DNA of 64,000 bases from the NCBI GenBank assembly GCA_038062895.1, contig JBBTWJ010000005.1, positions 131,715 to 195,714 of the forward strand, written 5' to 3'. The notes under the pieces were generated by a model. That model searched no databases. It saw only the letters and a program-made list of their open reading frames with translations, and was not told the DNA's origin. Origin of the DNA: Patescibacteria group bacterium (GTDB taxonomy: Bacteria > Patescibacteriota > Microgenomatia > UBA10105 > UBA927). The position numbers and the translations under genes are program-made. Positions 4,677-34,078 of the stretch are shown here, piece by piece. The first letter of the stretch is position 1. Each line of letters begins with the position of its first letter.

Positions 4677-4717
4677 ACCTGGCCCTCCGGCTTGCTGGGG
4701 GCAAGCAGAAATTATCC

Positions 4718-9300: not shown

Positions 9301-10461
9301 ATGAGAAAATTTCTTGCCCGCATTCCTTATTTATCCATACTGGTTATTTTTAGTGTGCTATCGGTCGGGGGATTGGTCTATGCATATCAGATGATAGGGA
9401 GTCTAAACAATAGCATTGCTTCAGAACAAAAACAACTTGATGAGACGAAGCAAACCTTAGTGACAGTCCAAAGCGAAGACCAGTACGTAAAAAATAAAAC
9501 ACTAGAGGCGACCATAAGTGCAATAGAAAAAACATATGGCACGACCGTGAAGATGTATGAGGAAGTCCTTTCGCTCAAAGAGTTTACAAAAGACGGAACG
9601 ATATTTGATGGATCCATTTCCGCGGTGTTGACGTTCCTCTCTAAACGTGAGTATGCGTCTGCCTCCGCGATGCTTGATACTATTGCGCGGGACACCAAAG
9701 CGCTCCGCGCAAAGCTCGCAAGCCAAGCTCAATCAATACCGGCAAATGTCGTAGCGGACAATACGCTTCCGGGGGGAGGATTTCGTAGGCAGTCGGTAAA
9801 AAATGAGTTTGGTACGTATCTCGTCGATGTGATTGCCGCGGACCTTTCTTCAACAAGGGCGATAGTCGATACCGCATCGGATAAGGATTGTGGAAATGAC
9901 TGTCCGACGCTGTCCCTGGGAGAATATGTATCCCGAAACGGAGGATACGCCGGGGTAAACGGCTCATACTTCTGTCCGAAAGAGTACCCGAGCTGCGCCG
10001 GGAAGACGAATACCTTTGATACGCTCCTCATGAATAAAAATAAAACGTACTTTAACTCCGATAATAATGTTTACAGCACCGTGCCGGCAGTGATATTTTT
10101 GGGGGGATCTGCCCGGTTTGTGGGAAAGTCGCTCGAATGGGGGAGAGACACGGGAGCTGATGGAGTGCTGGCCAATCAGCCATTGCTTCTCATGGGTGGT
10201 AACGTCCAGTTCGGCGGCGATGATGATCCGAAGAAAGGCTCGAGGGGGTCACGAAGTTTCGTGGGGAGCCGGGGGAGCACGGTGTATATTGGGGTTGTCC
10301 ATGGCGCGACGGTCGCGGAGGTCGCCCATGTGCTCAAAGCGATGGGAGTGGAAAATGCGATTAATCTGGACAGTGGAGGGTCGGTGGCACTCTGGTACAA
10401 TGGATATAAAGCAGGACCTGGGAGAAATATTCCCAATGCGATAGTACTAGTAAGAAGATAA
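9301..10461 (+). CDS. phosphodiester glycosidase-family protein (NAGPA-like), membrane anchored
   Basis: N-terminal TM helix and coiled-coil region. C-terminal domain ends with the family motif 'AINLDSGGSVALWYNG'. Confidence 0.5.
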   Translation: MRKFLARIPYLSILVIFSVLSVGGLVYAYQMIGSLNNSIASEQKQLDETKQTLVTVQSEDQYVKNKTLEATISAIEKTYGTTVKMYEEVLSLKEFTKDGTIFDGSISAVLTFLSKREYASASAMLDTIARDTKALRAKLASQAQSIPANVVADNTLPGGGFRRQSVKNEFGTYLVDVIAADLSSTRAIVDTASDKDCGNDCPTLSLGEYVSRNGGYAGVNGSYFCPKEYPSCAGKTNTFDTLLMNKNKTYFNSDNNVYSTVPAVIFLGGSARFVGKSLEWGRDTGADGVLANQPLLLMGGNVQFGGDDDPKKGSRGSRSFVGSRGSTVYIGVVHGATVAEVAHVLKAMGVENAINLDSGGSVALWYNGYKAGPGRNIPNAIVLVRR

Positions 10462-10619
10462 CAGGATTTATGCCAGGTAGTAGAAACTCGATACAAAATT
10501 TTATCCGATTTTAAAATCATGATTATAAATACAATGATTGTCGAGTCCAAAATAGTGCTATAAATCTTGAAAATTTTGTTTCCTCGCTAAGGCGAGGGAT
10601 CGAGTTTTCACTACCTGGT

Positions 10620-19819: not shown

Positions 19820-20377
19820 ATGATTCCGACTGAAGAACAGGCGCGGGCGCTCTGGGATAAGTACGAGCTGCCGGAGAAAAAACGTCAGCACGTGATGCTG
19901 GTGGCTCGGGTGGCGGAGTTCCTTGCACGACAAATTGACAAAGCAACAAACCAACAAATTAACCAATCACTTCTTCAAGCAAGCGCGCTGCTGCATGATA
20001 TTGATAAAAATGTGGAAAAGCTTCCCGGGGAACGGCATCCGGATGCGGGAGTGAGGATATTACGGGAAGAGGGGATGGGGGAGGTAGCCGAAATAGTAAA
20101 AACCCATTCGGTGCATGCAATTCTCGATCCCGCCATCATCCCGAAGACGTGGGAGGAGAAACTTCTGTTTCTTGCCGACAAAATGGTCAAGCAGGAGGTG
20201 ATCGGTGTGGATGCGCGGTTTGCCCAGTGGGACGCAGAAGATTTACCAGCATCGGAGATAGCGATGCTTCGTCGTGCATACCCCAACGTAAAGGAATTGG
20301 AGAAAGAAGTATTTGATTTGATCGGAATAGAAGCGGAAACATGTATGCGAATGATAAGAGAGGATAGGAGAGGTTAA
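19820..20377 (+). CDS. HD-domain phosphohydrolase
   Basis: 'LLHDIDK' HD motif with upstream His. Start at the internal Met 'MIPTEEQ'. Confidence 0.65.
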   Translation: MIPTEEQARALWDKYELPEKKRQHVMLVARVAEFLARQIDKATNQQINQSLLQASALLHDIDKNVEKLPGERHPDAGVRILREEGMGEVAEIVKTHSVHAILDPAIIPKTWEEKLLFLADKMVKQEVIGVDARFAQWDAEDLPASEIAMLRRAYPNVKELEKEVFDLIGIEAETCMRMIREDRRG

Positions 20378-20449
20378 GAGATTTTATGAGAAGGATTTGC
20401 AATCGTATTGTTATCGGGCGTATACTGGGGGCTAGTTTAAGGAGGAATC

Positions 20450-21049
20450 ATGAACATATCATTGGTCACCGTATTATTTGCTTTATTTTTTAGTTTTGCT
20501 TCGCTATCACCTTCCTTCGCTATAACGACACCCACAAAAACGACAGTATCAAACCCTGTGGTCGAAGCCATAAAAGTACCTGCGGAAAAAACCGATGGAG
20601 GTATGGAAAAAAAGCAGGAATACCTGCTCCCATTCCCGGGAATTCTTCCGGATCATCCGCTCTATTTCCTCAAACAAGTGCGCGATGGAATCATGGATCG
20701 GCTCATCGTAGACCCTTTGCGTAAGGCAGAGTTTCATGTGCTTCAGGCGGACAAGAGACTCAACATGGGCAAGGTATTGGTAGAGCAGAAAAAAGAGAAG
20801 CTCGCCGAAGAAGTGATCTCTAAAGGGGAAAAATATTTGGAGCGCGCGGTGAGCGGGCTTATGGCTTACAAATCTTTAGGCCGGCCGGTGCCGGCAAGTA
20901 TCATCGATAAACTAACGCGCTCTCTGGAAAAGCACGTGGAGGTGTTGACGGACCTCGTCGCCAAAACTTCCGGTACTGTCCAGTCGGGATTGACCGGGTC
21001 GCTGGACTTCGTCAAGAAATTACAAGGGGAAGTGGAGAAACTGAAATAA
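20450..21049 (+). CDS. secreted hypothetical protein (signal peptide plus helical domain)
   Basis: N-terminal signal peptide 'LVTVLFALFFSFASLSPSFA'. RBS GGAGGA 7 nt upstream. Confidence 0.5.
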   Translation: MNISLVTVLFALFFSFASLSPSFAITTPTKTTVSNPVVEAIKVPAEKTDGGMEKKQEYLLPFPGILPDHPLYFLKQVRDGIMDRLIVDPLRKAEFHVLQADKRLNMGKVLVEQKKEKLAEEVISKGEKYLERAVSGLMAYKSLGRPVPASIIDKLTRSLEKHVEVLTDLVAKTSGTVQSGLTGSLDFVKKLQGEVEKLK

Positions 21050-21286
21050 AAGTACGGGAGGTACGAAAAGTACGAGATGTACGGGAGGAACAGGGAAAGA
21101 GACAAGCGGATTATTATCCACAATATATGAATAGTTCTGAATCATTGAACACAATTAATACATATATCGCTGGTCACTCGTTTTTTGTCTCCTGTCGCTT
21201 GCATTAAACCCCGTACTTTTTCCTCAATTCTTGGCGGCCGAGGCTAGCAAAAATGATTGACTGTATTTGATCTAGAAATGACTAGT

Positions 21287-21315
21287 TGACGGGGCGCGGA
21301 AACCTTCATATAGTG
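21287..21315 (+). promoter_or_regulatory. sigma70-like promoter TTGACG-N17-TATAGT upstream of nrdR
   Basis: Near-consensus -35 and -10 hexamers with 17-bp spacing, about 150 bp upstream of nrdR. Confidence 0.45.
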
Positions 21316-21372
21316 GTCTAACATTGGTGTTCGCTCCACAGGTAGTGTTTTTTGTTTCACGGTGTGGCGCGC

Positions 21373-21449
21373 GATTAGCACTTGATAAAAGATACATGAT
21401 GAGCACATGATCACGAGCTGATCACGTTGGTTTCCATCACGTGCTCATC
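21373..21449. promoter_or_regulatory. array of GATKAGCACWTGAT motifs: two direct copies (21373, 21398) and one inverted copy (21436)
   Basis: GATTAGCACTTGAT, GATGAGCACATGAT and the inverted ATCACGTGCTCATC, lying between the promoter and the nrdR ATG. The same motif recurs at 51608, 51631 and 52044-52520. Confidence 0.6.
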
Positions 21450-21465
21450 GCGCGCTTTCGCGCGC

Positions 21466-21912
21466 ATGAAGTGTCCATACTGCAATCACGAAGAAACAGA
21501 GGTTTTGGAGACGCGCGACAGCGAGGATTTAGCCGTGACACGCCGCCGCCGAACGTGTACCAAGTGCGAGAAACGGTTTACGACGTACGAACGGCTTGAA
21601 TCCGTGCCCATTACGGTCATCAAGAAAGACGAACGGCGAGAAACATTTGACCGGGAGAAGCTCAAGCGCGGGATTGTGCATTCAAGCGGAAAGACAACGG
21701 TAAAAGCTGAAGACATTGATCGAATCGTTGATGAGGTGGAGCGCGAGCTTATCGGCGGGGAAAGCGTGGAGGTCACCAGCAAAAAGATAGGGGAGCTCGT
21801 CGCTAAGAGATTGAAAAAATTAGATAAGGTGGCGTATATACGCTTTGCAAGCGTGTTTCGAAGCTTTGTGGATGTGGAGGATTTTGAGCGGGAAGTGAAA
21901 AAATTGCTCTGA
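21466..21912 (+). CDS. nrdR: transcriptional repressor NrdR
   Basis: N-terminal zinc ribbon 'CPYCNHEETEVLETR...RRRTCTKCEKRF' and an ATP-cone domain. The ORF-track start is a TTG, and the ATG is at 21466. Confidence 0.9.
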   Translation: MKCPYCNHEETEVLETRDSEDLAVTRRRRTCTKCEKRFTTYERLESVPITVIKKDERRETFDREKLKRGIVHSSGKTTVKAEDIDRIVDEVERELIGGESVEVTSKKIGELVAKRLKKLDKVAYIRFASVFRSFVDVEDFEREVKKLL

Positions 21913-21951
21913 GCAATTTTTTCATCCTGAGCGAAGTCGAAGGATCTCATT

Positions 21952-24471
21952 ATGGATCTCACCGGCATCAGACAAAAAGTATTCTTAGACCGTTACGCGC
22001 TCAAGGACGAAGCGGGTAACCCTACCGAAAAAACGCCGGAGGAGATGTGGCGCCGGGTCGCCCATGCCATAGCCCAAGTGGAACCTAAAAAACAGCGTGA
22101 GCAGTGGGAGAACAAATTTTATCAGGCGATGGATAATTTCGTCCTGGTGCCCGGGGGACGGATCCTTTCGGGTGCCGGAACGGGGTATAAAGTCACCTAT
22201 TATAATTGTTTCGTAATCCCGAGCCCCCATGACTCGCGGCAGGGAATCCTCAACACTCTTTCACAAATGGTAGAAATCATGTCCCGCGGCGGCGGGGTTG
22301 GGATCAATCTCTCGAGTTTGCGTCCCAGAGGTGCGCGCGTACAGAAGGTCAACGGATTCTCGTCCGGCCCCTGCAACTGGGCGGAACTTTTCAGTGTCGC
22401 GACCCGCGACATCATTCAACAAGGGGGAAGCCGGAGGGGCGCTCTCATGCTCATGCTCTGGGATTGGCATCCGGATGTCGAGGAGTTTATCACCGTGAAA
22501 CAGGACCTCGCGCGCATTAATGGCGCAAACCTCTCTGTGTGTGTCTCGGACGCGTTCATGGAAGCGGTGAAAAAGGACGCGGATTGGGATCTCGTATTTC
22601 CCGACAAAAGTGATCCCGAGTATGACGAGAAATGGGATGGCTATCTTCCTAACTGGCTAAAGCTTGGCAAGAAAGTCATCGTTCAAAAAACAATAAAAGC
22701 CCGTGCATTATGGGACCTCGTTGCACAAGCCGCATGGAAGTCTGCAGAGCCCGGGGTTGTTTTTATGGAGCGTAATAATAAATGGTTTAATAATTATTAT
22801 TGGGAATATGTCAATTGTGTTAATCCCTGCGGTGAAGAACCGCTGCCGAATTATGGGGTCTGCAATCTCACATCCATTAATTTGTCTGCATTAGTCAATG
22901 AACAAGGCGATATGGATTATATGCGGCTCTCCGAGGTGGCCAAGACAGGCGTACGATTCCAGGATGATGTGATTGATGCTGATGTATACATATTCCCTGA
23001 GATAAAAAAACGACAAGTTGAAGGCGAACGTCGGATTGGCTTGGGGACTATGGGGCTAGGGGACGCGCTCATCAAAATGAAGCTCCGATACGGATCAAAA
23101 GAAAGTCTCGCGGTGATTGATAAGATTTATCAAACCATCCGGGACGCTGCCTACGAATCCTCTGTGGAAGTGGCGGCCGAAAAAGGCGCGTTTCCGGCAA
23201 TCGATATAAAGAAGCATCTGGAGGGATATTTCGTCAAACAACTTCCCGAAGAAATCAAAAAGAAAATAAAAAAGCATGGCGTGCGAAACTCGGTCATCCT
23301 GCAACAGGCGCCGACAGGGAGTACATCCCTCATGGTGGGAGTGAGCTCCGGCATAGAGCCGGTGTATGAGTTTGAGTTTCTGCGCCACGACCGTTTAGGT
23401 GAACACATCATCCGCCACCCATTATATGATGCGTGGGTTTCTCAATTTATCGCAACGAATAGACGAGAACCGAATAAAGCAGACCGGCCGGATTATTTTG
23501 TGTCCGCAAACGACTTGACCCCCGAGGACCACGTCTATGTCCAGGCTGCAATACAGAAACATGTCGACGCTTCGATCAGCAAGACAGTCAACGCCCCGAA
23601 GACCCATACGGTTGAGGACGTGAAGCGGCTGTATACACTCGCTTATGAATTAGGGTGCAAGGGAATCGCGTACATGCGGGAGGGGAGCAGGCAGGGAGTG
23701 CTCGAGCGGATAGAGGAAGCGAAACCCACGGTTGAGGGAAAACCAGATGAGGTGAAAGTAGCCGGTCAGTATGTGCCGGAGGTCAAGCCCCGGCCGATGG
23801 TCGTCCACGGATCGACCTACCAAGTGGAGACGCCGGTCGGACAAGCGTATGTGACCATCAATACCAATGGAGGCCGCCAGCCGCTTGAGCTTTTTATGAA
23901 CATCGGGAAGGCAGGGAGCGATGTCACCGCGATGGCGGAAGCTATGGGTCGGCTGATTTCTCTCATTTTCCGAATTGCCTCACCGGTTTCCCCAATCGAA
24001 CGCGCACACAAAGTAGCGGCAGAGCTTATCGGTATCGGGGGAGCGCGTTCTCTCGGGTTTGGGGAAAACCGGGTGCGGAGTTTGCCGGATGCCGTCGCGA
24101 AAGTCATTGACCGGCATTTTGGATTTTTTACCAAGCATAAGTTGACCGATGTCCCGCAACCTGCAGCAGGAGGCGACGTGATGGCGTCACACGAAACAAA
24201 CGGAAATGGTTCGACTCCGTTCACCACAGGTGGTGCTGCCATGACGACAACTTTAATGAATGGAGCCACCAATGGAAATGGTCATATGACGGAATTAAAA
24301 ACGGACAACAATGATGATAAAGAGCAGACAGTGGACGCGGCATCCTACCAGCGGGCGGTAGCCCAAGAGCGGGTGGTGACGGTCGATCTTTGCCCGAGCT
24401 GTGGCGAGGGGAGTCTGGTATTTGAGGAAAGTTGTAAGAAATGCTACTCGTGCGGATATTCGGAATGCTAA
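21952..24471 (+). CDS. nrdJ: adenosylcobalamin-dependent ribonucleotide reductase (class II, NrdJ)
   Basis: Class II RNR catalytic barrel with Cys-containing 'NPCGEEPL' and a C-terminal zinc-ribbon tail 'CPSCGEGSLVFEESCKKCYSCGYSEC'. Lies 39 bp after nrdR. Confidence 0.9.
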   Translation: MDLTGIRQKVFLDRYALKDEAGNPTEKTPEEMWRRVAHAIAQVEPKKQREQWENKFYQAMDNFVLVPGGRILSGAGTGYKVTYYNCFVIPSPHDSRQGILNTLSQMVEIMSRGGGVGINLSSLRPRGARVQKVNGFSSGPCNWAELFSVATRDIIQQGGSRRGALMLMLWDWHPDVEEFITVKQDLARINGANLSVCVSDAFMEAVKKDADWDLVFPDKSDPEYDEKWDGYLPNWLKLGKKVIVQKTIKARALWDLVAQAAWKSAEPGVVFMERNNKWFNNYYWEYVNCVNPCGEEPLPNYGVCNLTSINLSALVNEQGDMDYMRLSEVAKTGVRFQDDVIDADVYIFPEIKKRQVEGERRIGLGTMGLGDALIKMKLRYGSKESLAVIDKIYQTIRDAAYESSVEVAAEKGAFPAIDIKKHLEGYFVKQLPEEIKKKIKKHGVRNSVILQQAPTGSTSLMVGVSSGIEPVYEFEFLRHDRLGEHIIRHPLYDAWVSQFIATNRREPNKADRPDYFVSANDLTPEDHVYVQAAIQKHVDASISKTVNAPKTHTVEDVKRLYTLAYELGCKGIAYMREGSRQGVLERIEEAKPTVEGKPDEVKVAGQYVPEVKPRPMVVHGSTYQVETPVGQAYVTINTNGGRQPLELFMNIGKAGSDVTAMAEAMGRLISLIFRIASPVSPIERAHKVAAELIGIGGARSLGFGENRVRSLPDAVAKVIDRHFGFFTKHKLTDVPQPAAGGDVMASHETNGNGSTPFTTGGAAMTTTLMNGATNGNGHMTELKTDNNDDKEQTVDAASYQRAVAQERVVTVDLCPSCGEGSLVFEESCKKCYSCGYSEC

Positions 24472-24608
24472 GCCGCAAACTCTAAGCACTAAATCCTAAA
24501 TTCTAAACAAATTCAAATGTTCAAAATTTCAAATTCAAAACGGTTTGAATATTTGGATTTAGGATTTTGATATTGTTTGGGATTTAGAAATTAGGATTTG
24601 GGATTTAT

Positions 24609-25193
24609 ATGGCAATTTATACCCGTACCGGCGATACCGGATCAACGTCCCTCTTTGGCGGTAAGCGCGTCCTCAAGTGCGAGGAGCTTGTGGAGGTCTA
24701 TGGGTCGCTTGATGAGTTAAATTCGTGGATTGGGCATGTCGCATCACTCTTTCCTTCTCCGGATGTCAAACAATTTCTTCAGACCATACAATCCGATGTC
24801 TTTACGATCGGCAGCACGCTTGCAGGGTGGAAGAATGGAGATTTGACTGCACTGGAAAGCCGGGTAAAGGAAATGGAAGCGCGGATCGATGCCATGGAGG
24901 AGAGTTTACCTCCAATCCGGAATTTCATCCTGCCGGGTGGCGCGGAGTTGGCCGCTCACACACATATTACGCGCAGTATTTGCCGGAGAGTGGAGAGGCA
25001 ACTTGTTTCATTGAAGGTACGAGAAGTACAGGAAGTACAGGAAGTACAGGAGGTACGGGAGGGAGATGTTGACGTGATGATTAAGTACCTCAACCGGCTT
25101 TCGGACTTGTTTTTTATGCTCGCGCGGTTTATAAACAAGCAGGAGAATGTGGAAGAAGTGATTTGGAATGGAAACCATTCCAAATCATCCTGA
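24609..25193 (+). CDS. pduO: ATP:cob(I)alamin adenosyltransferase, PduO type
   Basis: 'MAIYTRTGDTGSTSLFGG' N-terminal signature of PduO-type adenosyltransferases. Contains an in-frame 9-bp tandem repeat encoding VREVQEVQEVQEVRE. Confidence 0.8.
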   Translation: MAIYTRTGDTGSTSLFGGKRVLKCEELVEVYGSLDELNSWIGHVASLFPSPDVKQFLQTIQSDVFTIGSTLAGWKNGDLTALESRVKEMEARIDAMEESLPPIRNFILPGGAELAAHTHITRSICRRVERQLVSLKVREVQEVQEVQEVREGDVDVMIKYLNRLSDLFFMLARFINKQENVEEVIWNGNHSKSS

Positions 25194-25227
25194 GCGAGTA
25201 AAGCGAGTCGAAGGATCTTAAAAATAC

Positions 25228-25363
25228 AGATATCAGGGGAATCGTGGTGTGAATCCACGGCTGTGCCGCAACTGTAAAGCCAGAAAACCTGAATCGTAGA
25301 CCGTCTCTCGAGCAAGGGGAATTTTTTTGGTGTAGCCCTCTTGATTATGAGAGGGCTTTTATT
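25228..25363 (+). ncRNA. cobalamin (B12) riboswitch-like leader with an intrinsic terminator expression platform
   Basis: AGGGGAA...GGUGUGAAUCC...GCUG...CCGCAACUGUAA (B12-box variant GCAACUG)...AAGCCAGAAAACCUG matches the cobalamin riboswitch core. Terminator GCCCUCU-loop-AGAGGGC followed by UUUUAUU directly abuts the GNAT ATG. Confidence 0.5.
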
Positions 25364-25837
25364 ATGGAATTTACCATACGACAGGGGACAGAAGAAAAAG
25401 ATTTTTCGCTTATCCAAGCGCTTAACGCCGCTCTTTTTGCGGAAGATCAGAATCATGACGGCGCGCTGGATACCCATTGGCCGGTGAGTGTCGCGGGCGT
25501 GGAGTATTATATGAAATCCCTCATGGACACGCAAAAAATTGTGTTCATTGCCGAGGATGATCAAACCAATCCTGTAGGGTACATCATTGCCTCGATGGTC
25601 AATAAATGGCGGTACCGTATAGTAAAAACCGGAGAACTCGAGAACATGTATGTCACTCCGGCTGCCCGAAAGCAAGGAGTGGGGCGTGCTCTCATCGAAA
25701 AAATAAAAATATGGCTGAAGGCAAAGGGAGTGGAGCGGCTCTATGTTTCCGCGTATACCACTAACACCAACGCGATAGCTTTTTACGAAACAAACGGCTT
25801 TGCGCCATGGGAGACAGGGATGGAGGCAACCCTCTAA
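25364..25837 (+). CDS. GNAT family N-acetyltransferase
   Basis: Motif A 'RKQGVGRALIEK' and the C-terminal 'NAIAFYETNGF'. Confidence 0.75.
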   Translation: MEFTIRQGTEEKDFSLIQALNAALFAEDQNHDGALDTHWPVSVAGVEYYMKSLMDTQKIVFIAEDDQTNPVGYIIASMVNKWRYRIVKTGELENMYVTPAARKQGVGRALIEKIKIWLKAKGVERLYVSAYTTNTNAIAFYETNGFAPWETGMEATL

Positions 25838-25838
25838 T

Positions 25839-27734
25839 ATGGCAGAATTTGCCCTTGGTGGAGACAACGGCGGACACAGTTGGAATAATGCCATCGCCCA
25901 CGCGACGTACGAGGAGAACGTGGAAAAGTTTGGCGCAGATACAGCAAGGAATTATTTACGGAAGGACATCCGTAGCTTCATACAGGAACAAAAAGGACAG
26001 GAAAGCCAATGGTCGCTTACTGTGCAGGGCGGCCGGATGGTAACGGAGACGGGGGTAAGCCTGGACGAAATGACCGCGAATATTACCCAGGGGCGATATA
26101 GCAATCTCGTGCCGGAGAACATAAAAGCTACCGCACCTCTAGAGGCAGCGACACTCCGGGAAGCGACAAGGCTTGCAGTTGATGGTGCGGAAAAAATTAT
26201 TTTGCCGGAACAGCATTTGGACGCGGACGGCAATATCGTTTCCCGCTATCTTTCTGTTTGGACGAAGAATGCTTCTGACTCCACACGGTATGACGGATCA
26301 AGAATTGATTTGGGAAAAAATATACGGATCGAAGACGTGCGAACCGGCACGTCTTTTACTGCATTTGAACAACATGAAAGTATCTCTTTTCATCAACATA
26401 AAGATGAAAAACGAGCGTTCGTACTGGCGATTCATTCCAATTCAGAAGACTCGTTTCGAGTGGTGAAAGATTCCTTAGTGACAAAGGTGCACAGATCTCA
26501 TCAGGAAACCTATTCGATTCCCGTCGTGCGGGAAGGACGACAGAAACAAACAGATATCAAAGAGAACCGTCATGCTGATATGTTGACGGAGGTCCCCCGT
26601 GCTGTTTTTCGTGATGTTCGTGAAACGGCAGGGAGCGTATCGATCTTTTTACGGAATAAAAAGGAACAGATTAACTATGATAACGAGAGAAAGAGCGAAC
26701 GATTAACCCTCAAAAAAATCCGTGAGAAGCCAGTGCGGCTTGGTCACGTTATCGAAAAGCGACACATCGAAATGCGCCGCGCCGTAGTATCAATCGCCGT
26801 GATCGCCGAGACCGGAGTCGCCCTCCACGCGGTGCCGGTGTTGCTTGCGAGACTCTCTGAAACGTCGCCTGCGCCGATCCGGGCGGTCGAGAAGAGTATA
26901 CGAAGACACGAGAAAAAAGTACCCCACTTCGCTAAAGCTTCGCGGGGCAGGCGGGAGGTGCAAAAAACACGAGCGGTAAGAAGGAGTTTTGAAAAGGTTC
27001 AACCCTTGAAACCCTTGATGTCAGAAAGGATTGAACCTTTCAGAAGCGTTAAAGAACGTAGGAAGAGGGTGAAGCGCGGAGGGGAGAAGTGGATCAAAAC
27101 AGTTGCGGCCGCAGAGATATTGGCACCGATCGCCACAGAAAAGCGGGAGAGGCGAGTGTGGAAACGACTGCGACGGATCATGAGGAGAGCGGAGCGAGTT
27201 CTCGAGAGTAAGCGAATGCCAAAACGAGAGAAGAAGCTGTGGCGAGCGTTGGCCGTGACTGCCGCGAAATTAGCTTCGCAAGGCCAGGCCTTGCGAAGCT
27301 GGGAAGTAAAAAAGCGAAACGATATCACCCACAAGAGTCGAGACGTTCTGACATCGAAGCCAGCCCTCGAGGCCGGGAGTTTAGCAGGGCGCAAAGAACA
27401 GGCGGCAATGGCGGGAGTCCGTTTTGCGTTCGTGGTATGGGCGTTGCTGAACCGTGCTAATTTCCCTCCGGTCGAGAGTAAATTAGCAATATTTACTTCA
27501 AAAGAAGGAAGAAGAAGAATACGTGCCAAGCTAGTTCACCCGAAGGGTGAGAAGAAGGGTGAGGAAAAAGAGTTGACGCCGTGGGTATTGCTATCCATCA
27601 TTTGGTATATGACCGCGATACGCGAGCAGGGGAGAGGATCAAATCCGACCAATCCGGCCAATATACCAATCCGACCAATTAAAAAGGTTCTAACATTTCC
27701 GCAATATGCAGTCATTTTTGCGTATGCTTCGTGA
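25839..27734 (+). CDS. large hypothetical protein: acidic N-terminal half, extremely Arg/Lys-rich C-terminal half
   Basis: ATG 1 nt after the GNAT stop. No antisense competitor of note. Contains the 29-bp palindrome in-frame (KLASQGQALRS). Possible nucleic-acid-binding protein. Confidence 0.4.
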   Translation: MAEFALGGDNGGHSWNNAIAHATYEENVEKFGADTARNYLRKDIRSFIQEQKGQESQWSLTVQGGRMVTETGVSLDEMTANITQGRYSNLVPENIKATAPLEAATLREATRLAVDGAEKIILPEQHLDADGNIVSRYLSVWTKNASDSTRYDGSRIDLGKNIRIEDVRTGTSFTAFEQHESISFHQHKDEKRAFVLAIHSNSEDSFRVVKDSLVTKVHRSHQETYSIPVVREGRQKQTDIKENRHADMLTEVPRAVFRDVRETAGSVSIFLRNKKEQINYDNERKSERLTLKKIREKPVRLGHVIEKRHIEMRRAVVSIAVIAETGVALHAVPVLLARLSETSPAPIRAVEKSIRRHEKKVPHFAKASRGRREVQKTRAVRRSFEKVQPLKPLMSERIEPFRSVKERRKRVKRGGEKWIKTVAAAEILAPIATEKRERRVWKRLRRIMRRAERVLESKRMPKREKKLWRALAVTAAKLASQGQALRSWEVKKRNDITHKSRDVLTSKPALEAGSLAGRKEQAAMAGVRFAFVVWALLNRANFPPVESKLAIFTSKEGRRRIRAKLVHPKGEKKGEEKELTPWVLLSIIWYMTAIREQGRGSNPTNPANIPIRPIKKVLTFPQYAVIFAYAS

Positions 27735-27746
27735 TATGATAAATAT

Positions 27747-28172
27747 ATGGATGGCCTACCAACCCCGCCGATGGCGGGGAATAACCCAATAAATACCAAT
27801 AATCCAATAATCCAATCAGGAAATATTTCTGTTGGGAAGGAGTTGGAGTCAGGTGTGGTGGTGAAAGAAGAGCCGGGGCTCAAGGATGTATCGGGACAGG
27901 AAATAGAGCTACCCCGCGAAGTGGCGGCAGCCGGAGTGTCTAACCAACCGACGACGGTGCAACTCCCGCAGCCGGTCTCACAAATGGGGGTAAAAGTAGT
28001 CGGGGATGCAGTGGTGCCGGCAGCGCCGCCGGTGGCGCTTCCTTTGACTGATGATCAGATTGCATTGGGACTCAAACAAAGTGTAACCACCTCTTGGCGG
28101 TGGCTCGCAGAATTCTGCGTACGGAAATTGAAACAACTACACAAAACATTAGTCAAAAGTCCAAAAGTCTAA
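27747..28172 (+). CDS. hypothetical protein (Pro/Val-rich)
   Basis: 141-codon ORF between the basic protein and the ATPase. The N-terminus is encoded by the CCAATAATCCAAT repeat. Confidence 0.3.
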   Translation: MDGLPTPPMAGNNPINTNNPIIQSGNISVGKELESGVVVKEEPGLKDVSGQEIELPREVAAAGVSNQPTTVQLPQPVSQMGVKVVGDAVVPAAPPVALPLTDDQIALGLKQSVTTSWRWLAEFCVRKLKQLHKTLVKSPKV

Positions 28173-28200
28173 AGTCGATAAAGTCTAGAAAGTAAACACT

Positions 28201-30591
28201 TTGAGACTTTCAAACTTTACGGACTTTAAGACTCATTTTATGCCATTACAATTTGCCGATCTTACCTATCAGTTGGAAATATTTGCCGTAAGCCTCTTAT
28301 TATTGGTGGTGTTTTTGACGGGCCTCGTGATCCTGGGCTATATAGCATTTCTTTTTTGGAAGTACCGAAACCGTGAAGAGCGAAGCCTCGAGTATGTGCT
28401 CATGCAGATAGCGGTCCCGAGGGAAAACGAGACGAAGATTGATGCGGCAGAGCAGTTGTTTGCAAGTTTACATTCCATTTCTCATGGTGGATTTTGGTCC
28501 TTCCTCAAGCCCCAGGACCATATTTCTTTTGAAATAGTCGCCAAGCGTGAAGATATCCGATTCTACGTATGTGTGCCCCGGCGGCTCATGGATTATGTGG
28601 AGAAGCAAATACACGGAAGCTATAGCGGGGCAGACATCAAGGAGGTAGACGAATATTCTATATTCTCCCAGACCGGCAAGGTCGCATTTGCAGCGCTCAA
28701 ACTGAAAAGTTCTAACTACTTTCCAATGCGGATATATCGGGATTTGCCGGTGGATCCACTCTCTTCCATCACCTCGGTGTTGGCTAAAATGCAGGAAGGG
28801 GAGGGGGCTGCCGTACAAATCCTCATCCAACCGGCGGACAGTAAGTGGCGAAAACTCGGCCGGGGATACATATCGAAAGTAAAAAAAGATGAGGCCAATC
28901 CCGAAAAAGCGAACTTCAAAGTGGACCCCAAAAGTCTCGAGGCAATTGAAGGCAAAGTGAGTAAACCCGGATTTAACACAGTTGTCCGATTGGTCGTATC
29001 ATCGCCGAGCGAGGAATCGGCAAAACAGCATTTGGAAAATTTGATCGGATCCTTCGAGCAGTTTGCCAGTGATCATAATAATTTTACGAAAGTGAAGCTT
29101 CCCATGAAACAGCTCTTTATGGTGGACTTCATTTACCGGTATTTTCCGGTGATCAACCTGCCACTTCTCCCGCAGCACAGCGTGCTTTCTACAGACGAGC
29201 TGGCGACTATTTTTCATTTACCGAATAAATCTATCGAGACCGCACACATCTTTTGGCTCAACGCCAAGCGCGCACCGGCTCCGTCCCAGATACCATCCTC
29301 GGGATTATTTATGGGCATCTCGCGCTACCGAGGGCAGGACCGAAGAATATATATTGGCGAAGATGACCGAAGACGGCACATGTACATCATCGGCAAAACA
29401 GGAACGGGTAAATCACAACTCCTGGAGGAGATGGTCATGCAGGATATCCATGCCGGTCATGGACTGGCCGTCGTGGATCCCCACGGAGATCTGGTCGAGA
29501 ACATTCTCGCCCGTATGCCCCCCGGTAGGGCGGAGGACGTCATCTACTTTGATCCGGGAGACAGCGAGCGGCCGATTGGCTTGAATCTCTTGGAAGCCAA
29601 GACCGAACTGCAAAAACACTTTGTGGCAACGTCTATCGTCGGGCTCATGTATAAGCTCTTTGACCCTATGAAAACCGGTATCATCGGGCCCCGGTTTGAA
29701 CATGCGATCCGAAACGCCATGCTTACCGTCATGGAAGCCATCCCCAACGGCACCTTCATCGAGGTTGTCCAGACGCTGCAACGCCCGGACTTCGTGCAGT
29801 CACTTCTGCCACTCGTCAAAGATCCGATTGTACGGCGGTATTGGACGGATCAGATTGCCCAAACCGCGGACTTTCATAAATCGGAGGTCCTGGACTACAT
29901 CGTCTCGAAATTCGGGCGGTTCATCACCAACAAGCTCATCCGCAATATCATCGGACAATCCTATTCCAGTTTTGAATTCCGCAAAGTCATGGATGAGGGG
30001 AAGATACTCCTCGTCAATCTCGCAAAGGGGAAGCTGGGGGAGGAGAACAGCAATTTTCTGGGACTCATCCTTGTTCCCCGGATTTTGATTTCTGCTATGA
30101 GTCGGCAGGAAATACCGGAGGAGAAACGGCGGGACTTTTATCTGTACGTGGATGAGTTTCAAAATTTCGCGACCCCCGACTTTGCCCAGATCCTGTCCGA
30201 AGCCCGGAAATACCGTCTCAACCTCATCGTTGCCAACCAGTTCATCGGGCAGATGGAGGAGGAAGTGAAAAATGCGGTATTTGGAAACGTAGGTACCGTG
30301 GCTTCGTTCCGTATCGGTGTCACCGATGCCAACTACCTGCAGCATGAATTTCAGCCGACTTTCAATGAAAGTGATCTCATCAACATTGATCGCTTCAACG
30401 CGTACGTCAAAACGACCGTTCACAACGAGCCGGTCAAGCCGTTTAGCATGGATTTGACCAAAGACATGAGTAAGGTCACGGCGTCCAAAAATCCGGCTGT
30501 GGCCGCGGCCATTGTCCAGCTCTCGCGCCTCAAGTATGGCAGGAGCAAAGAGCTCGTGGAAGCCGAGATAGCCCAGAGAGCAAGACTATAA
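28201..30591 (+). CDS. membrane-anchored coupling-protein-like ATPase (VirD4/TraG/TraD/TrwB family, FtsK-HerA superfamily)
   Basis: N-terminal TM helices. Walker A 'IIGKTGTGKSQ' and Walker B 'FYLYVDEFQNFA'. About 800 aa, as for type IV coupling proteins. Confidence 0.6.
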   Translation: MRLSNFTDFKTHFMPLQFADLTYQLEIFAVSLLLLVVFLTGLVILGYIAFLFWKYRNREERSLEYVLMQIAVPRENETKIDAAEQLFASLHSISHGGFWSFLKPQDHISFEIVAKREDIRFYVCVPRRLMDYVEKQIHGSYSGADIKEVDEYSIFSQTGKVAFAALKLKSSNYFPMRIYRDLPVDPLSSITSVLAKMQEGEGAAVQILIQPADSKWRKLGRGYISKVKKDEANPEKANFKVDPKSLEAIEGKVSKPGFNTVVRLVVSSPSEESAKQHLENLIGSFEQFASDHNNFTKVKLPMKQLFMVDFIYRYFPVINLPLLPQHSVLSTDELATIFHLPNKSIETAHIFWLNAKRAPAPSQIPSSGLFMGISRYRGQDRRIYIGEDDRRRHMYIIGKTGTGKSQLLEEMVMQDIHAGHGLAVVDPHGDLVENILARMPPGRAEDVIYFDPGDSERPIGLNLLEAKTELQKHFVATSIVGLMYKLFDPMKTGIIGPRFEHAIRNAMLTVMEAIPNGTFIEVVQTLQRPDFVQSLLPLVKDPIVRRYWTDQIAQTADFHKSEVLDYIVSKFGRFITNKLIRNIIGQSYSSFEFRKVMDEGKILLVNLAKGKLGEENSNFLGLILVPRILISAMSRQEIPEEKRRDFYLYVDEFQNFATPDFAQILSEARKYRLNLIVANQFIGQMEEEVKNAVFGNVGTVASFRIGVTDANYLQHEFQPTFNESDLINIDRFNAYVKTTVHNEPVKPFSMDLTKDMSKVTASKNPAVAAAIVQLSRLKYGRSKELVEAEIAQRARL

Positions 30592-30889
30592 AAAAGTACG
30601 GGAAGTATGAAAGGTACGGGAAGTACGGGAGGGTAGAGCAGAAAATCCTATAGGCTTGACTTCTTCTTCTTCTTCTTCTTCTAAACTCCATTGATACGTA
30701 GGCCAATAAAGAGCGTCACAAAGCGATGTTTATTTTGTTGGTTTGCTATTTTTGTTGCTCATTGACAGGTTGCGGAAAACATTCAGTTGTCTTCTATTCA
30801 ATACAATGGATAGCATCTTTAGCATGATTATTCGTGCTTGAAATGCTATCCATAGGTATGGATAAATATAAAATAAAAGGAGAAAGAAA

Positions 30890-31396
30890 ATGTTAGAAGA
30901 TACGTGGTACCAATTATATGTAAAGTCTCCATTGGGAAACGGTTATACAACGCCCCAAGCAATGAAACGCATAGATGACTATCTCATCTCAAAAACCCCT
31001 GCGTCATTTGTTGCGCCAACAGGTCTGCCGGAACAAGGTGAGGACGGAACATGGGAAATTCGAGTGCATCAGCAATCAGCCCTTGTACTTGTTAAACGCA
31101 TTCTCACTGAGCATTATGGTTTAGAAATCGTCCGAGAAGTGGAGAATGCACCAAAGGTTGAGGGAGAGGCGCCGATGGACGATGACATTACAAAACGAGC
31201 CCTGACAATCGCCGAAATGGAAGATCACACGATTAACCCAGGTGCGATCAAGGTTCTTGGAAAGCTGTTTGCTAAGTATGGTGTGGGTGACATATCGAAG
31301 ATCGAACAATTGAAACTCACCTATATACAGGTGTGGGCACGTTACAAAACAGCTGGCTATGACATTTCGATTATGCATCAACAGCTATATAGTTGA
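30890..31396 (+). CDS. hypothetical protein
   Basis: ORF in an AT-rich segment with an AGGAGA RBS. No motif recognised. Confidence 0.35.
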   Translation: MLEDTWYQLYVKSPLGNGYTTPQAMKRIDDYLISKTPASFVAPTGLPEQGEDGTWEIRVHQQSALVLVKRILTEHYGLEIVREVENAPKVEGEAPMDDDITKRALTIAEMEDHTINPGAIKVLGKLFAKYGVGDISKIEQLKLTYIQVWARYKTAGYDISIMHQQLYS

Positions 31397-31506
31397 CCGC
31401 AACATTGAGACGCAAGACCCCCTCCGGAGTCAAATTTGTTCTGATGAATATCGGAATGATTTTGATGTTGATGGAGGGGTTTGTTTTGTAAGCACTGGTG
31501 TACGCG

Positions 31507-31629
31507 CTATGATCGTGATGATTTTTTCGAAGACGATTTCCGAAAAAATGCAACGTACATCAAGAGAAAGACGATGAGAAGCAGCGCATACATAACAGAG
31601 ATGTTGTTGGCGATTGTAGTAAAGTTCAT
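31507..31629 (-). CDS. small hydrophobic peptide (40 aa, one TM helix)
   Basis: GGAGGTG RBS upstream on the minus strand. Start overlaps the stop of the preceding small membrane ORF (ATGA). Confidence 0.25.
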   Translation of the reverse strand: MNFTTIANNISVMYALLLIVFLLMYVAFFRKSSSKKSSRS

Positions 31630-31829
31630 GATTGACCTTGCACCTCCTCTCGTAGACTTTTGGCAATAAACAGAGAAATAATGCCAAGAAAAAAACGAAA
31701 AAGCAGTTCCCACGGGGTTTTGAGTGTTCCTAGTTGCGGTTCGATAAATACGACGGCAAACCACCCTGCAGAGAGATTAACAAAAAGTTCTGAAACTATT
31801 TCAAACCATACGGTCGAGATAGTCATCAT
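31626..31829 (-). CDS. small membrane protein (67 aa, two TM helices)
   Basis: Hydrophobic ORF in the AT-rich intergenic segment, coupled to the 40-aa peptide ORF. Confidence 0.25.
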   Translation of the reverse strand: MMTISTVWFEIVSELFVNLSAGWFAVVFIEPQLGTLKTPWELLFRFFLGIISLFIAKSLREEVQGQS

Positions 31830-31915
31830 GATGCTACTGTATCAAGAAATTAGTGGAACTGCAACGTTAAACTGCAACGTAAAAATTATTTCACCCCTTT
31901 ACCCAGCACCACGCG

Positions 31916-33325
31916 ATGGCGCGGGGTTTACTTTTTATTGCAACTGCTATAGTGTTGTTTATCATGGGTGATGAAATTACCGTTTATATCGCCAACATGT
32001 CTGAGGACGTGTGGCCCTTCATATCCAGTATCTCCGACAAGAAGATGTTTGAGTTTGAGATAGAGGATAACGCACACCTGGGAGACCGCGACATATTTGC
32101 CGTCGCCCCCAATGGCGGGATCCTTTGTGTGTTGCCCCGGACAGTGAGCGAGGCGTATCTTGCCTACTACAGTCAGATCATGAATGTGACGAACGCCCGC
32201 GTGGTCGTGCCCCCGAAGCATACGGGGGAAATCTGTGAGGATATATTGCGTAGTGAAAAGACGTTAGACGCGTTGATCGAGGCCTCGGGCGAACATAAAT
32301 CATTGACACTTCTCTCTTACACGACATCCTTGCAGTTTTTGCAGCTGGTAAAAGTTTTGCGGGAGCGGGGAATAAAAGTAAATACTCCGGAAGCCCCGGA
32401 AGAGGAAGATGCATGGATTGTCAATTTTTTTGGCAGCAAATCGGGTATCCGGCAGTTTGTCCAGAAAAGCGGTGCGGTCGAACCGGATCTGCGGATGCCA
32501 GAGGGCCTGTTTTGCGTGGGGATCGATGACGCGGCGCGGATCGCTGCCAATAAATACGTTGCCCGCGATGGGGTCGTCATCAAAACCAATAAGGGACACT
32601 CGGGAAGCGGGGTGCTTATTTTCCGTCCCGGGGAACTGCCCAAGCAGTACAGTGTGTGCCGCGAAAAAATCCGGGAGACGTTATCAAAAGATGTGTATTG
32701 GGACCGGTTTCCGATCGTCATTGAGGACTATATTGCCGCTAACCCTGGTGTCGGGGGCGGGTTCCCCAATGTGGAGTTTAAAGTGCAGAAAAGCGGGAAA
32801 GTGGAATTCTTATACTACTGTGGGATGCGGGTGACCAAAGAAGGGTCATTCCGTGGCGTGGAGATACACCACAGCGTGGTTTCGGACAAGATAGAGGCGC
32901 AGATGGTGGATACGGGATTTTTTGTCGGTGAGCAGTATGCTAAGGCCGGGTACCACGGGTACTATGATGTGGACTTTGTGGCCGGCCGGGGAGGGGAGCT
33001 TTTTGTGACGGAATCCAACGTACGGCGTACGGGCGGGACGCACGTCTACGCTGTAGCCAACCGTCTGTTCGGAAAAGAGTTCATGTACGAGACGTATACG
33101 CTTTCGTGTAATACCTATCCGCTGCCGAAGGGGAAGAAGTTTACGTTTACTTCGTTGCTCGAAATATTGAAACCAGTTCTTTTTGATAAAAAGACGCGCG
33201 AAGGGGTCATATTAGTATCTGAAAATATGTTGGAGATGGGGCAGATGCAGTACATCATCTTCGGGGCTAATAAAAAGAGAGCGCTCGAGATTGAGGCGGA
33301 AATGGAGAGATTGTTAGTTGGTTAG
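31916..33325 (+). CDS. ATP-grasp family ligase with N-terminal extension
   Basis: 'VVIKTNKGHSGSGVLIF' and 'FVTESNVRRTGGTH' ATP-grasp motifs. Confidence 0.55.
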   Translation: MARGLLFIATAIVLFIMGDEITVYIANMSEDVWPFISSISDKKMFEFEIEDNAHLGDRDIFAVAPNGGILCVLPRTVSEAYLAYYSQIMNVTNARVVVPPKHTGEICEDILRSEKTLDALIEASGEHKSLTLLSYTTSLQFLQLVKVLRERGIKVNTPEAPEEEDAWIVNFFGSKSGIRQFVQKSGAVEPDLRMPEGLFCVGIDDAARIAANKYVARDGVVIKTNKGHSGSGVLIFRPGELPKQYSVCREKIRETLSKDVYWDRFPIVIEDYIAANPGVGGGFPNVEFKVQKSGKVEFLYYCGMRVTKEGSFRGVEIHHSVVSDKIEAQMVDTGFFVGEQYAKAGYHGYYDVDFVAGRGGELFVTESNVRRTGGTHVYAVANRLFGKEFMYETYTLSCNTYPLPKGKKFTFTSLLEILKPVLFDKKTREGVILVSENMLEMGQMQYIIFGANKKRALEIEAEMERLLVG

Positions 33326-33399
33326 TTCGTTACTTAGTTACTTCGTAAAAACAGTTTTTTGATATAATGCCTACGTTACGTATAGAAACGCCAAATAAC

Positions 33400-33471
33400 G
33401 GGGCTGTAGCTCAGCGGTAGAGCGCTACTCTTATAAAGTAGATGTCCTTGGTCCGATCCCAAGCAGCCCCA
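33400..33471 (+). tRNA. tRNA-Ile (anticodon UAU)
   Basis: Hand-folded cloverleaf with acceptor GGGGCTG/CAGCCCC, D stem GCTC/GAGC, anticodon stem CTACT/AGTAG, loop CTTATAA, T arm CTTGG-TCCGATC-CCAAG. CCA not encoded. Confidence 0.75.
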
Positions 33472-33480
33472 CCTGTTGGC

Positions 33481-33523
33481 AATTATCCAATTATCCAATT
33501 TCAAATAATCCAATAATCCAATG
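33481..33523. repeat. (TTATCCAA)n / (TAATCCAA)n 8-bp tandem repeat
   Basis: aattatccaattatccaatttcaaataatccaataatccaat. Same family as 27781, 54487, 63915 and the related 63283. Confidence 0.8.
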
Positions 33524-34078
33524 GGAGAAGAGGTCGTAGTATTAGTTGACGATGATGATCGTGAGATCGGATTAGCGCCGAAAGAAAGCGTTCATACCAC
33601 CAACACGCCGCTCCACCGTGGGTTCTCCTGCTTCCTGTTTAATTCCAAAAAAGAGCTGCTTCTGACAAAACGTGCCTCAACGAAAAAAACATTTCCGGGC
33701 GTGTGGACAAACACCGTCTGCGGGCACCCTGCACCGGGGGAGAGCGTGGAGGAGGCGGCCTTGAGGAGGCTCAATGATGAGTTGGGACTGACAAGGTTGA
33801 ACCTTGTCAAGAAACAAGGTTCAACCTTTTTACGAGAGATTACCCCCTATCGATATAGATTCACCGATGCTAATGGCATTGTCGAAAACGAGATTTGTCC
33901 GGTGCTCGTTGGGTACTGCGATACGGACCCTAAGCCGGATAAGACGGAAATAGAAGATTGGAGATGGGTACGATGGGAGGAGTTTTTGGAAGATATTAAG
34001 AAAAATCCAGAAATTTATTCCCCATGGAGTAGGGAAGAAAGTTACATTCTGGCCCATTCTTCAAGTATGTTTCTGTGA
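33521..34078 (+). CDS. idi: isopentenyl-diphosphate delta-isomerase, type 1
   Basis: 'HRGFSCFLFN...LLLTKRASTKKTFPGVWTNTVCGHP' matches the IDI-1 (Nudix-fold) signature with catalytic Cys and Glu. Confidence 0.85.
   Translation: MGEEVVVLVDDDDREIGLAPKESVHTTNTPLHRGFSCFLFNSKKELLLTKRASTKKTFPGVWTNTVCGHPAPGESVEEAALRRLNDELGLTRLNLVKKQGSTFLREITPYRYRFTDANGIVENEICPVLVGYCDTDPKPDKTEIEDWRWVRWEEFLEDIKKNPEIYSPWSREESYILAHSSSMFL

Follow-up and report, generated by a model that had tools for sequence, protein, structure and literature searches.

A class-II cobalamin riboswitch between pduO and an uncharacterised gene module in a Patescibacteria genome

A 64-kb stretch of DNA (the window; coordinates are window positions unless a related locus is named) matches identically contigs from the genome of an ultra-small groundwater bacterium (Hainich), a Patescibacteria member of Candidatus Gottesmanbacteria type. 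It carries, on the plus strand, the gene order nrdR-nrdJ-pduO-riboswitch-GNAT-large protein-small protein-ATPase, in which nrdJ encodes a B12-dependent ribonucleotide reductase (RNR) and pduO an adenosyltransferase. The riboswitch, first proposed in a sequence-only reading of this DNA, raises the question of what this RNA is, how it could switch and which of the genes behind it depend on B12. Patescibacteria (candidate phyla radiation, CPR) form a large and mostly uncultured share of the bacteria, with minimal metabolism and many conserved genes that lack functional annotation, and the riboswitch would link uncharacterised downstream genes to B12 status for the first time. We conclude that the RNA is clearly a member of a known riboswitch class with a complete and conserved expression platform. 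The segment 25220-25363 is probably a functional class-II riboswitch, predicted to be OFF with B12 and to lie between the nrdR-nrdJ-pduO and GNAT-large-small-ATPase parts of one operon. Related loci compared with the window are labelled in the form L001.

Identity and conservation of the aptamer

Rfam comparison matched the aptamer to RF01689 (AdoCbl-II) over the full model (1-81), with 44.2 bits against a gathering score of 36.5 (E 2.3e-7), and the core sequence quoted in the sequence-only reading is present as written at 25234-25295. RF00174, the other model that had been suggested for this check, is not the top model for the window. It is the best model for relatives with an extended P6; those with a hairpin inserted in P6 score as RF00174, and the clade therefore straddles the two families. 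A scan of the whole window at the Rfam gathering thresholds returned three tRNAs and this one riboswitch. Because of the Rfam match, the covariation, the kissing loop and the terminator platform described below, the aptamer is called a cobalamin riboswitch; it is a class-II cobalamin riboswitch (RF01689, clan CL00101).

The large P6 extension that class II lacks is absent here, L6 being only 6 nt long. The box CUGU(G/A)CCGCAAC is invariant across the clade; the segment previously read as a variant B12 box is indeed present, but corresponds to the P5/L5 to P6 region. In the Rfam alignment ACAGAUA is placed in J1/3, the element that in env8-type members forms a T-loop docking on J6/3, and the P1 pairs are poor. 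The same bases alternatively enter a continuous P1, 25225-25231 with 25293-25298, in the minimum free energy (MFE) fold. Class-II members without J1/3 exist, and ligand selectivity within the class varies widely and depends on J1/3 (PMC6158498).

An alignment of raw leaders recovered P4 and P6 only, and a core alignment curated by hand was therefore used. It has 59 columns from 16 species, with the insertions removed, an extra L13 base dropped in three sequences and two junction bases dropped in five. Over the counted pairs (P3, P4, P5, P6, P13 and the L5-L13 pseudoknot) 99.7% of cells were paired, and 12 of 21 pairs had changes on both sides. The covariation score was 0.581, against 0.215 +/- 0.021 for shuffles (0/500 reached the observed value), and 0.06-0.17 when partners were slid by 1-3 columns. 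The compensatory changes that had been proposed as a check were thus found in P3, P4, P6 and P13 of the curated alignment: both-side changes in all three counted pairs of P3 (16 species), covariation in all three of P13, compensatory changes in four of the five P4 pairs, and double changes in one of the three P6 pairs, the middle one (UA/GC/CG). P5 is invariant and so shows no double changes. MAFFT with RNAalifold on ten raw, uncurated leaders recovered P4 (4/5 compensatory) and P6 (1/3, the same pair) independently. The species spanned by these changes have PduO proteins 53-83% identical.

The regulatory contact of such riboswitches is made by L5 with the loop of the P13 hairpin, and unpaired purines there are essential for switching (PMC5028336). 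In the window L5 UGCCG and L13 CG(A)GCA form five Watson-Crick pairs around one bulged A, that is, a kissing loop predicted in silico with at least one unpaired nucleotide on P13. The P13 stem occurs as UCUCU/AGGGG, UCUCU/AGAGG, UCC/GGA, ACC/GGU, UCCUU/AAGGA or CUUC/GAAG. L5 reads UACCG in L009-L011 and L027, opposite an L13 of CGAGU(N)A or CGGGUGA, and in the unrelated low-GC locus L066 UACCG faces CGAGUA exactly; a G-C pair of the kissing loop has become A-U in the L009-L011 group, in L027 and, independently, in L066. Among 78 metagenome riboswitches with L5 UGCCG, a phylogenetically mixed set, 51 have CG(A/G)GCA within 260 nt downstream, where about 13% would be expected by chance. Pairing of the L4 sequence UGUGAAU with the terminator loop was considered as another kissing loop and rejected, as it offers only 3-4 pairs, shows no covariation, and the literature puts the contact at L5-L13 (PMC5028336).

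PduO-anchored loci were collected from 16 other species, and in all 15 that have sequence after pduO a cobalamin-riboswitch core follows this gene directly. Three more loci from complete genomes were taken through the ATPase, and L027 and L029 of these carry the element, which accordingly stands directly after pduO in 17 of 18 Candidatus Gottesmanbacteria-like loci with readable sequence there. Only four of the 15 loci pass the Rfam gathering scores (L005 and L009 for RF01689, L006 and L016 for RF00174); the remaining ones are missed because of hairpin insertions in L4, J4/5 or L6. A degenerate core pattern matched metagenome sequences of numerous phyla at least 120 times. Among the matches are more distant Patescibacteria, with PduO 41-47% and ATPase 66-67% identical, that share the NrdJ-PduO-riboswitch order, several of them confirmed by Rfam, and the distant lineages with the element include L040, L091, L038, L046, L051, L097 and L066.

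Several of these loci have features of their own. Hairpin inserts of 31-35 nt in the L4 T-loop (UG[ACCCACUUCGCG UAAAGCUA CGCGGGUCGAG]GAAUU) were seen in three species (L001, ~9985-10020; L004, ~10640-10680; L010, ~10580-10615), L011 has a 45-nt two-hairpin insertion in J4/5 (~5065-5110), and the motif CGCGUAAAGCU(A/U)CG recurs in the P6 extension of L029. The inserts in L4, J4/5 and P6 may be a small recurrent structured insert, possibly a mobile or tertiary-contact module. At L028, the locus without the aptamer, a hairpin and U-run (AACUUCUCGCGGUGAGGAGUUUUUUU, ~7575-7620) overlaps the pduO stop just before the DUF4430 start, and the large protein is absent. L051 has two cobalamin riboswitches in one locus, ordered NrdJ-RS1-PduO-DUF4430-DUF6580-RS2-Zn-ribbon protein; RS1 (3121-3202, 44.3 bits) is above the Rfam threshold and RS2 (4700-4734) was found by pattern only. 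A glmS ribozyme match (1868-2119, 39.4 bits against 37) is present in L016, a related Patescibacteria contig.

Expression platform and position within the operon

The terminator scan located the strong intrinsic terminator noted earlier before GNAT: its hairpin, AGCCCUCUUG/UGAGAGGGCU, spans 25334-25357 and leads into UUUUAUUAUG. No other strong plus-strand terminator was found in 20300-33600. The GNAT Shine-Dalgarno sequence (SD), GAGG at 25351-25354, is part of the 3′ arm of this hairpin, and the AUG follows 9 nt later, at 25364. An antiterminator helix, in which CAAGGGG (25313-25319) pairs with CCUCUUG (25337-25343), is the MFE structure of a transcript that ends at 25343. The calculated energies are -7.7 kcal/mol for the antiterminator, -2.3 for P13 alone (25304-25319) and -13.9 for the terminator.

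Complementarity of the P13/L13 strand to the terminator 5′ arm is kept with other sequences in L005, L008, L009, L027, L040 and L051: GAG(C)AAGG against CCUUCUC in L005, CUUCGAG against CUCGAAG in L009, and CUUCCGAG against CUCGGAAG in L040 and L051. In L004 a G-to-A change strengthens both P13 and the antiterminator. L006, L007, L013, L015, L029 and L096 have no terminator, and a GGAG SD lies inside P13, 5-9 nt before the AUG; these species are env8-like, with the classic translational mode of class II (PMC5028336).

The following mechanism is predicted. With cobalamin bound, the L5-L13 kissing loop would lock P13 and keep AGGGG from the antiterminator, the terminator would form, and transcripts coming from pduO would end at about 25363; in any read-through message the SD would be sequestered in the terminator 3′ arm. 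In the absence of cobalamin CAAGGGG would pair with CCUCUUG, blocking the terminator and leaving the SD free, and the genes for GNAT, the 631-aa and 141-aa proteins and the ATPase, which form a single closely packed unit, would be transcribed and translated together. B12 scarcity, when the B12-dependent RNR cannot work, would then be the condition under which the downstream module is made. Since the terminator 3′ arm holds the GNAT ribosome-binding site, the switch most likely acts, in the OFF direction, on both transcription and translation.

The element had been described as a leader. It does stand ahead of GNAT, but it is not a classical 5′ leader, as the aptamer begins 27 nt after the pduO stop. 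Only a few nucleotides separate it from that stop in L002, L005 and L010, and in L003 and L006 the stop codon of pduO lies inside P1. Because P1 abuts or overlaps the pduO stop, there is no room for a promoter of its own in several species. The terminator scan found no terminator in the interval between pduO and the aptamer, and nrdJ-pduO transcripts must therefore enter the riboswitch, which would be a conditional terminator inside the operon, with transcription either stopping after pduO or continuing. In the promoter search sigma-70-like matches were at chance level. The best promoter-like site of the region, by consensus match only, is at 21286-21314 before nrdR, and TTGTTT-17-TATAAA inside the 3′ end of pduO was set aside as uninformative, as it overlaps conserved codons.

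Several points weigh against a functional switch that governs the whole downstream unit. The fold of the 181-nt region is no more stable than that of shuffles (z = -0.99). RNAalifold on raw sequences missed P1/P3 and P13, the outer helices and P13 being misaligned there because of the variable insertions; the core alignment in turn favours pairing, as strands were chosen by eye and insertions removed. The covariation of the kissing loop amounts to one pair and two or three evolutionary events. L028 has lost the aptamer, but its DUF4430-DUF6580-small-ATPase order is intact. Read-through would need kinetic trapping, as the terminator exceeds the antiterminator in stability by about 6 kcal/mol. 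Finally, promoters inside GNAT or the large gene are possible, and we infer control of the distal genes, of the ATPase above all, from spacing only.

Table 1. Features of the riboswitch region and its operon (window positions)
Feature	Position	Strand	Description or support
NrdR	21427-21912	+	Pfam
nrdJ, class II RNR	21952-24471	+	Pfam
pduO, ATP:cob(I)alamin adenosyltransferase	24609-25193	+	Pfam PF01923, E 6e-53
Aptamer	25220-25298	+	RF01689 by cmscan; homologous elements after pduO in related species
P1/P3 5′ strand, UAC a GAU a UCAGG	25225-25237	+	Pairs with 25288-25298 (CCUGA AUC GUA) in the MFE fold
P4 hairpin CGUGG/CCACG, L4 T-loop UGUGAAU	25243-25259	+	Compensatory pairs
P5 (UG/CA), L5 UGCCG at 25264-25268	25262-25270	+	L5 is the aptamer half of the kissing loop
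P6 (CUG/CAG), 6-nt L6 at 25275-25280	25272-25283	+	Without peripheral extension
P13 hairpin UCUCU/AGGGG, L13 CGAGCA at 25309-25314	25304-25319	+	Covarying stem
Antiterminator helix, CAAGGGG with CCUCUUG	25313-25343	+	
Intrinsic terminator, 10-bp stem and U-tract	25334-25363	+	-13.9 kcal/mol
GNAT acetyltransferase	25364-25837	+	Pfam PF00583, 68.5 bits against 20.7, E 8e-19
631-aa orphan protein	25839-27734	+	Starts 1 nt after the GNAT stop
141-aa protein	27747-28172	+	Conserved C-terminal helix LPLTDDQIA..GL....SWRWLAEWC.R.LKQLH
Membrane-anchored DUF8128 and TrwB/VirD4-like ATPase	28240-30591	+	Pfam PF10412, PF26449

The genes behind the riboswitch and what they may do

The gene calls made earlier for this locus were right: Pfam supports a class II RNR, PduO, a GNAT and a TrwB/VirD4-like ATPase, and the two proteins encoded between the last two have no Pfam match. 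The large one, previously given as 632 aa, is 631 aa long here from the ATG at 25839. Intergenic gaps are 1 nt from GNAT to the large gene, 12 nt from the large to the small gene and 67 nt from the small gene to the ATPase. The remaining window content is of typical CPR genes, with numerous nucleotide-salvage genes. No btu, ECF-CbrT, DUF4430/DUF6580 or cobalamin-synthesis genes were found within the 64-kb window. The observation that a B12-dependent RNR and PduO occur without B12 synthesis genes thus holds within 64 kb, and the expected absence of btu and ECF-CbrT homologues was borne out among the window's genes. Because NrdJ and the adenosyltransferase occur in these 64 kb without B12 synthesis or recognised uptake genes, DNA synthesis in this bacterium likely depends on scavenged B12.

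The slot directly after the riboswitch is variable. It holds GNAT, for which no NCBIfam equivalog was found at its cut-off, in only five species (the window, L001, L002, L004 and L008), so that the suggested conservation of a riboswitch-GNAT linkage did not hold up beyond one lineage. The more general statement that the genes behind the riboswitch are not known B12-regulated functions stands, and the link to this gene set is kept across many species. In L007, L013 and L029 the slot holds DUF4430 and DUF6580, and it is empty in L003, L005, L009-L012, L015, L027 and L096, where the large gene comes directly after the riboswitch. Eukaryotic B12 carriers end in a DUF4430 domain (PMC4350170); in the literature searched on DUF6580, DUF4430 and B12 regulation in Patescibacteria, this presence of DUF4430 in eukaryotic B12 binders was the only relevant result. 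DUF6580 is a 170-aa membrane family, and the pair resembles a B12 binder with a membrane transporter. Since sister species carry them in the slot, a conventional B12-uptake target exists in the clade and is missing from the window.

The 631-aa and 141-aa proteins have no Pfam or NCBIfam match, hence no recognisable transporter or binding-protein domain that would place them with the known B12 uptake systems BtuB/BtuFCD, ECF-CbrT or BtuM. An AlphaFold2 model of the 631-aa protein shows a confidently predicted alpha/beta domain at the N-terminus (about residues 25-225) together with long basic helices and, at the C-terminus, hydrophobic ones; no fold match was found for it. A word-index search gave only 25 homologues, and its N-terminal residues 1-230, searched alone, only 27 representatives among 1.84 billion. 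The large protein of relatives has 560-760 aa and evolves very fast, with 24-60% identity to that of the window; among the more divergent species, conservation can be recognised in the hydrophobic C-terminal part alone. The 141-aa protein is modelled as mostly disordered (predicted local distance difference test 57) with a helix at 102-137. It has 157 homologues, none with a Pfam domain, and the matches with a named source are from Gottesmanbacteria or Patescibacteria; in relatives it is 124-170 aa long and keeps the C-terminal helix.

In distant lineages the first open reading frame (ORF) after the riboswitch belongs to another family (L040, L091, L038, L046, L097 and L066), whose members, all mutually related, are cytoplasmic, 330-470 aa long, and have in common a conserved GCG cysteine and, at the C-terminus, a CPxCG...CPxCG Zn ribbon. 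Searches of Pfam returned only weak Zn-ribbon matches for this family, and those of the PDB only ribosomal Zn-ribbon matches. Homology to the Gottesmanbacteria large protein was considered and rejected: the register found by eye was recovered by hhalign, not significantly (probability 0.1-0.3%). The Zn-ribbon gene is followed by a small protein and the ATPase in L091, the ATPase is again downstream in L040, and L038 has uptake-like genes upstream of pduO and only the Zn-ribbon gene after the riboswitch. Across these loci, the direct target most consistently seen for the riboswitch is the variable first protein.

The ATPase has a TrwB-type nucleotide-binding domain (NBD), with 36 bits against 20.5 for PF10412 and 24.4 against 22 for PF12696. 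Its match to TrwB in the PDB (E 2e-7) covers the Walker A region only, and against the NCBIfam TraD/VirD4 models all scores were far below the cut-offs. It is not encoded with a type IV secretion system (T4SS) or relaxase here; relaxase, VirB4 and other T4SS genes were not found within the 64-kb window. More than 7,900 homologues are in the database, the best 120 all at least 76% identical, and identity across the compared species is 77-96%; the ATPase is exceptionally conserved, and its operon partners are among the fastest-evolving genes here. Patescibacteria have thousands of homologues of the VirD4-like type IV coupling proteins (T4CPs), nearly all away from virB4, and in one cultivated strain the homologue is non-essential and possibly exapted (PMC12102498).

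How far the control reaches can be weighed on this evidence. The riboswitch might govern only the variable first gene, with the large, small and ATPase genes forming a housekeeping unit under a promoter of their own. The ATPase is near-universal and extremely conserved in Patescibacteria (PMC12102498), L028 keeps the small and ATPase genes with neither aptamer nor large protein, the riboswitch-controlled gene of L038 is not followed by the ATPase, and 67 nt precede the ATPase in the window, all of which would fit. However, in at least nine species, those with the empty slot listed above, the riboswitch stands directly before the large gene, often with a terminator. The 1- and 12-nt gaps leave the window no intergenic promoter space, promoter-like matches are at chance level, and the order riboswitch-first gene-small-ATPase persists at 66-67% ATPase identity. 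We regard such a separate unit as unlikely.

Somewhat less probable still is that the element serves mainly as a B12-dependent 3′ end of nrdJ-pduO, at which B12 would give a stable 3′ hairpin and hence more RNR and adenosyltransferase, with any downstream effect secondary. The aptamer is fused to the end of pduO, P1 overlapping the stop in several species, it includes the sole terminator of the nrdR-nrdJ-pduO unit, and its place behind pduO varies less than does the gene that comes next. Against this, the elements of L006, L007, L013, L015 and L029, with the SD in P13, are purely translational and can act only on the downstream gene, and in L051 the downstream gene is preceded by its own riboswitch, in addition to the one before pduO. 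That the aptamer is a decaying relic, with the Rfam match reflecting ancestry and the hairpin and U-run merely a constitutive terminator of the pduO operon, is very improbable: L028 lost the aptamer while hairpin and U-run remain, the window shows no evident J1/3 T-loop of the class-II consensus and P1 pairs poorly in the Rfam alignment, but every conserved core position is intact, P3, P4, P6, P13 and the kissing loop are kept by compensatory changes across species, an alternative continuous P1 is available, and J1/3-less members are known (PMC6158498).

Searches by sequence, profile and fold assigned no function to the large and small proteins or to the Zn-ribbon family. Under the preferred reading, a B12-OFF riboswitch upstream of the whole unit, two hypotheses on the module would fit the OFF logic. 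One is corrinoid acquisition, with the large protein, small protein and ATPase as a cobalamin acquisition system; it is supported by the co-operonic DUF4430/DUF6580 of sister species. The other hypothesis is a B12-independent supply of deoxynucleotides when NrdJ is idle, suggested by the location among nucleotide-salvage genes and next to nrdR-nrdJ, by the origin of T4CPs as DNA translocases, by a first protein that is basic or carries a Zn ribbon, and by the riboswitch that L051 has separately before its Zn-ribbon gene. Alternatively, the distal genes may be no more than neighbours. We put forward tentatively, as a possibility, that a B12-repressed first protein (basic and membrane-anchored, or Zn-ribbon) together with the small protein and the ATPase has a functional link to the B12 economy of these bacteria, which depend on hosts, through either corrinoid capture from the environment or a host, or T4CP-derived import of DNA or deoxynucleotides when the sole RNR, NrdJ, lacks its cofactor. 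If true, either would be the first functional assignment for the widespread orphan T4CP homologue of Patescibacteria. The riboswitch is a rare regulatory handle on orphan genes, and predicts that they are needed under B12 scarcity, including the orphan VirD4-like ATPase (PMC12102498).

Other features were seen around the operon. A tRNA-Ile gene (anticodon TAT, 33400-33473) lies directly after a PreATP-grasp gene, and a tRNA is at the equivalent position in L013, L015, L027 and L029, so that synteny extends well beyond the ATPase; L009 and L008 also have a tRNA match in the downstream region. An antisense ORF of 312 aa (24956-25894, minus strand) runs across the 3′ end of pduO, the riboswitch and GNAT, has no gene call in public records and is probably spurious. 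Inside pduO an in-frame 9-nt tandem repeat (GAAGTACAG x 4.2, 25023-25060) encodes repeated E-V-Q triplets towards the enzyme's C-terminal part. The AT-rich nrdJ-pduO spacer (24472-24608, 137 nt) consists of degenerate tandem repeats, with units ATTTAGG and an 18-21 nt unit, TTGGATTTGGGATTTAGAAA.

Comparison with known systems

A full-text literature search for Patescibacteria, cobalamin and riboswitch found no paper, and no description of such a regulon was found in the literature searched. The closest known RNA is the class-II riboswitch env8HyCbl (Johnson et al. 2012; Polaski et al. 2016, PMC5028336), with which the window element shares the P3-P6 four-way junction, the lack of a large P6 extension, the L4 T-loop, an L5-L13 kissing loop with unpaired purine(s), a P13 that carries or touches the ribosome-binding site, and the OFF logic predicted here. 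The env8 element is described as translational, whereas in the window the P13 3′ strand doubles as the antiterminator strand before an intrinsic terminator. The window element also has no evident J1/3 T-loop and is situated at the 3′ end of a gene, not in a free 5′ leader. The kissing loops differ in sequence, UGCCG:CG(A)GCA in the window and UACUUG:CAAGG(AG)A in env8. The env8 sequence as given here agrees with the residue numbering in PMC5028336.

The class-II riboswitch of the Enterococcus faecalis eut locus likewise has no identifiable J1/3 (PMC6158498). It resembles the window element, as predicted here, in ligand-dependent termination and in not being a simple mRNA leader. The E. faecalis riboswitch sets the length of the small RNA EutX, which sequesters a response regulator, whereas termination in the window would separate the upstream and downstream cistrons of one operon.

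Terminator-coupled cobalamin riboswitches are known from Firmicutes; of the 38 functional reporters in one study, 37 had terminators (Kennedy et al. 2022, PMC9600662). Those riboswitches, such as B. subtilis btuF, similarly couple kissing-loop sensing to an intrinsic terminator. Most of them belong to class I and have a P6 accessory region, and they control corrinoid transport, biosynthesis or B12-independent isozymes, whereas the window aptamer is class II and its targets are uncharacterised Patescibacteria genes. B12 riboswitches are also known to repress B12-independent isozymes, for example metE, and class Ia or III RNR genes where NrdJ is also present. The window element, as predicted here, is like these in being OFF with B12 and in adjoining a B12-dependent enzyme that its target genes could back up; the genes are, however, not an RNR or a recognisable enzyme, and such a back-up role is only a hypothesis.

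Like VirD4/TrwB T4CPs, the window ATPase has a Walker-type NBD matching TrwB_AAD_bind, TraG-D_C and DUF87 and an N-terminal membrane anchor, and like the orphan T4CPs of Patescibacteria (PMC12102498) it is encoded away from virB4. It differs from VirD4/TrwB in its 300-aa DUF8128 and in its apparent control by B12.

The fusion to the 3′ end of pduO, the presence of transcriptional and translational platforms in one clade and an uncharacterised, Patescibacteria-specific regulon are unusual. The locus is a compact natural case of a class-II aptamer whose P13 and kissing loop would drive a terminator, with SD sequestration in sister species, and the clade is thus useful for comparing expression platforms on one shared aptamer.

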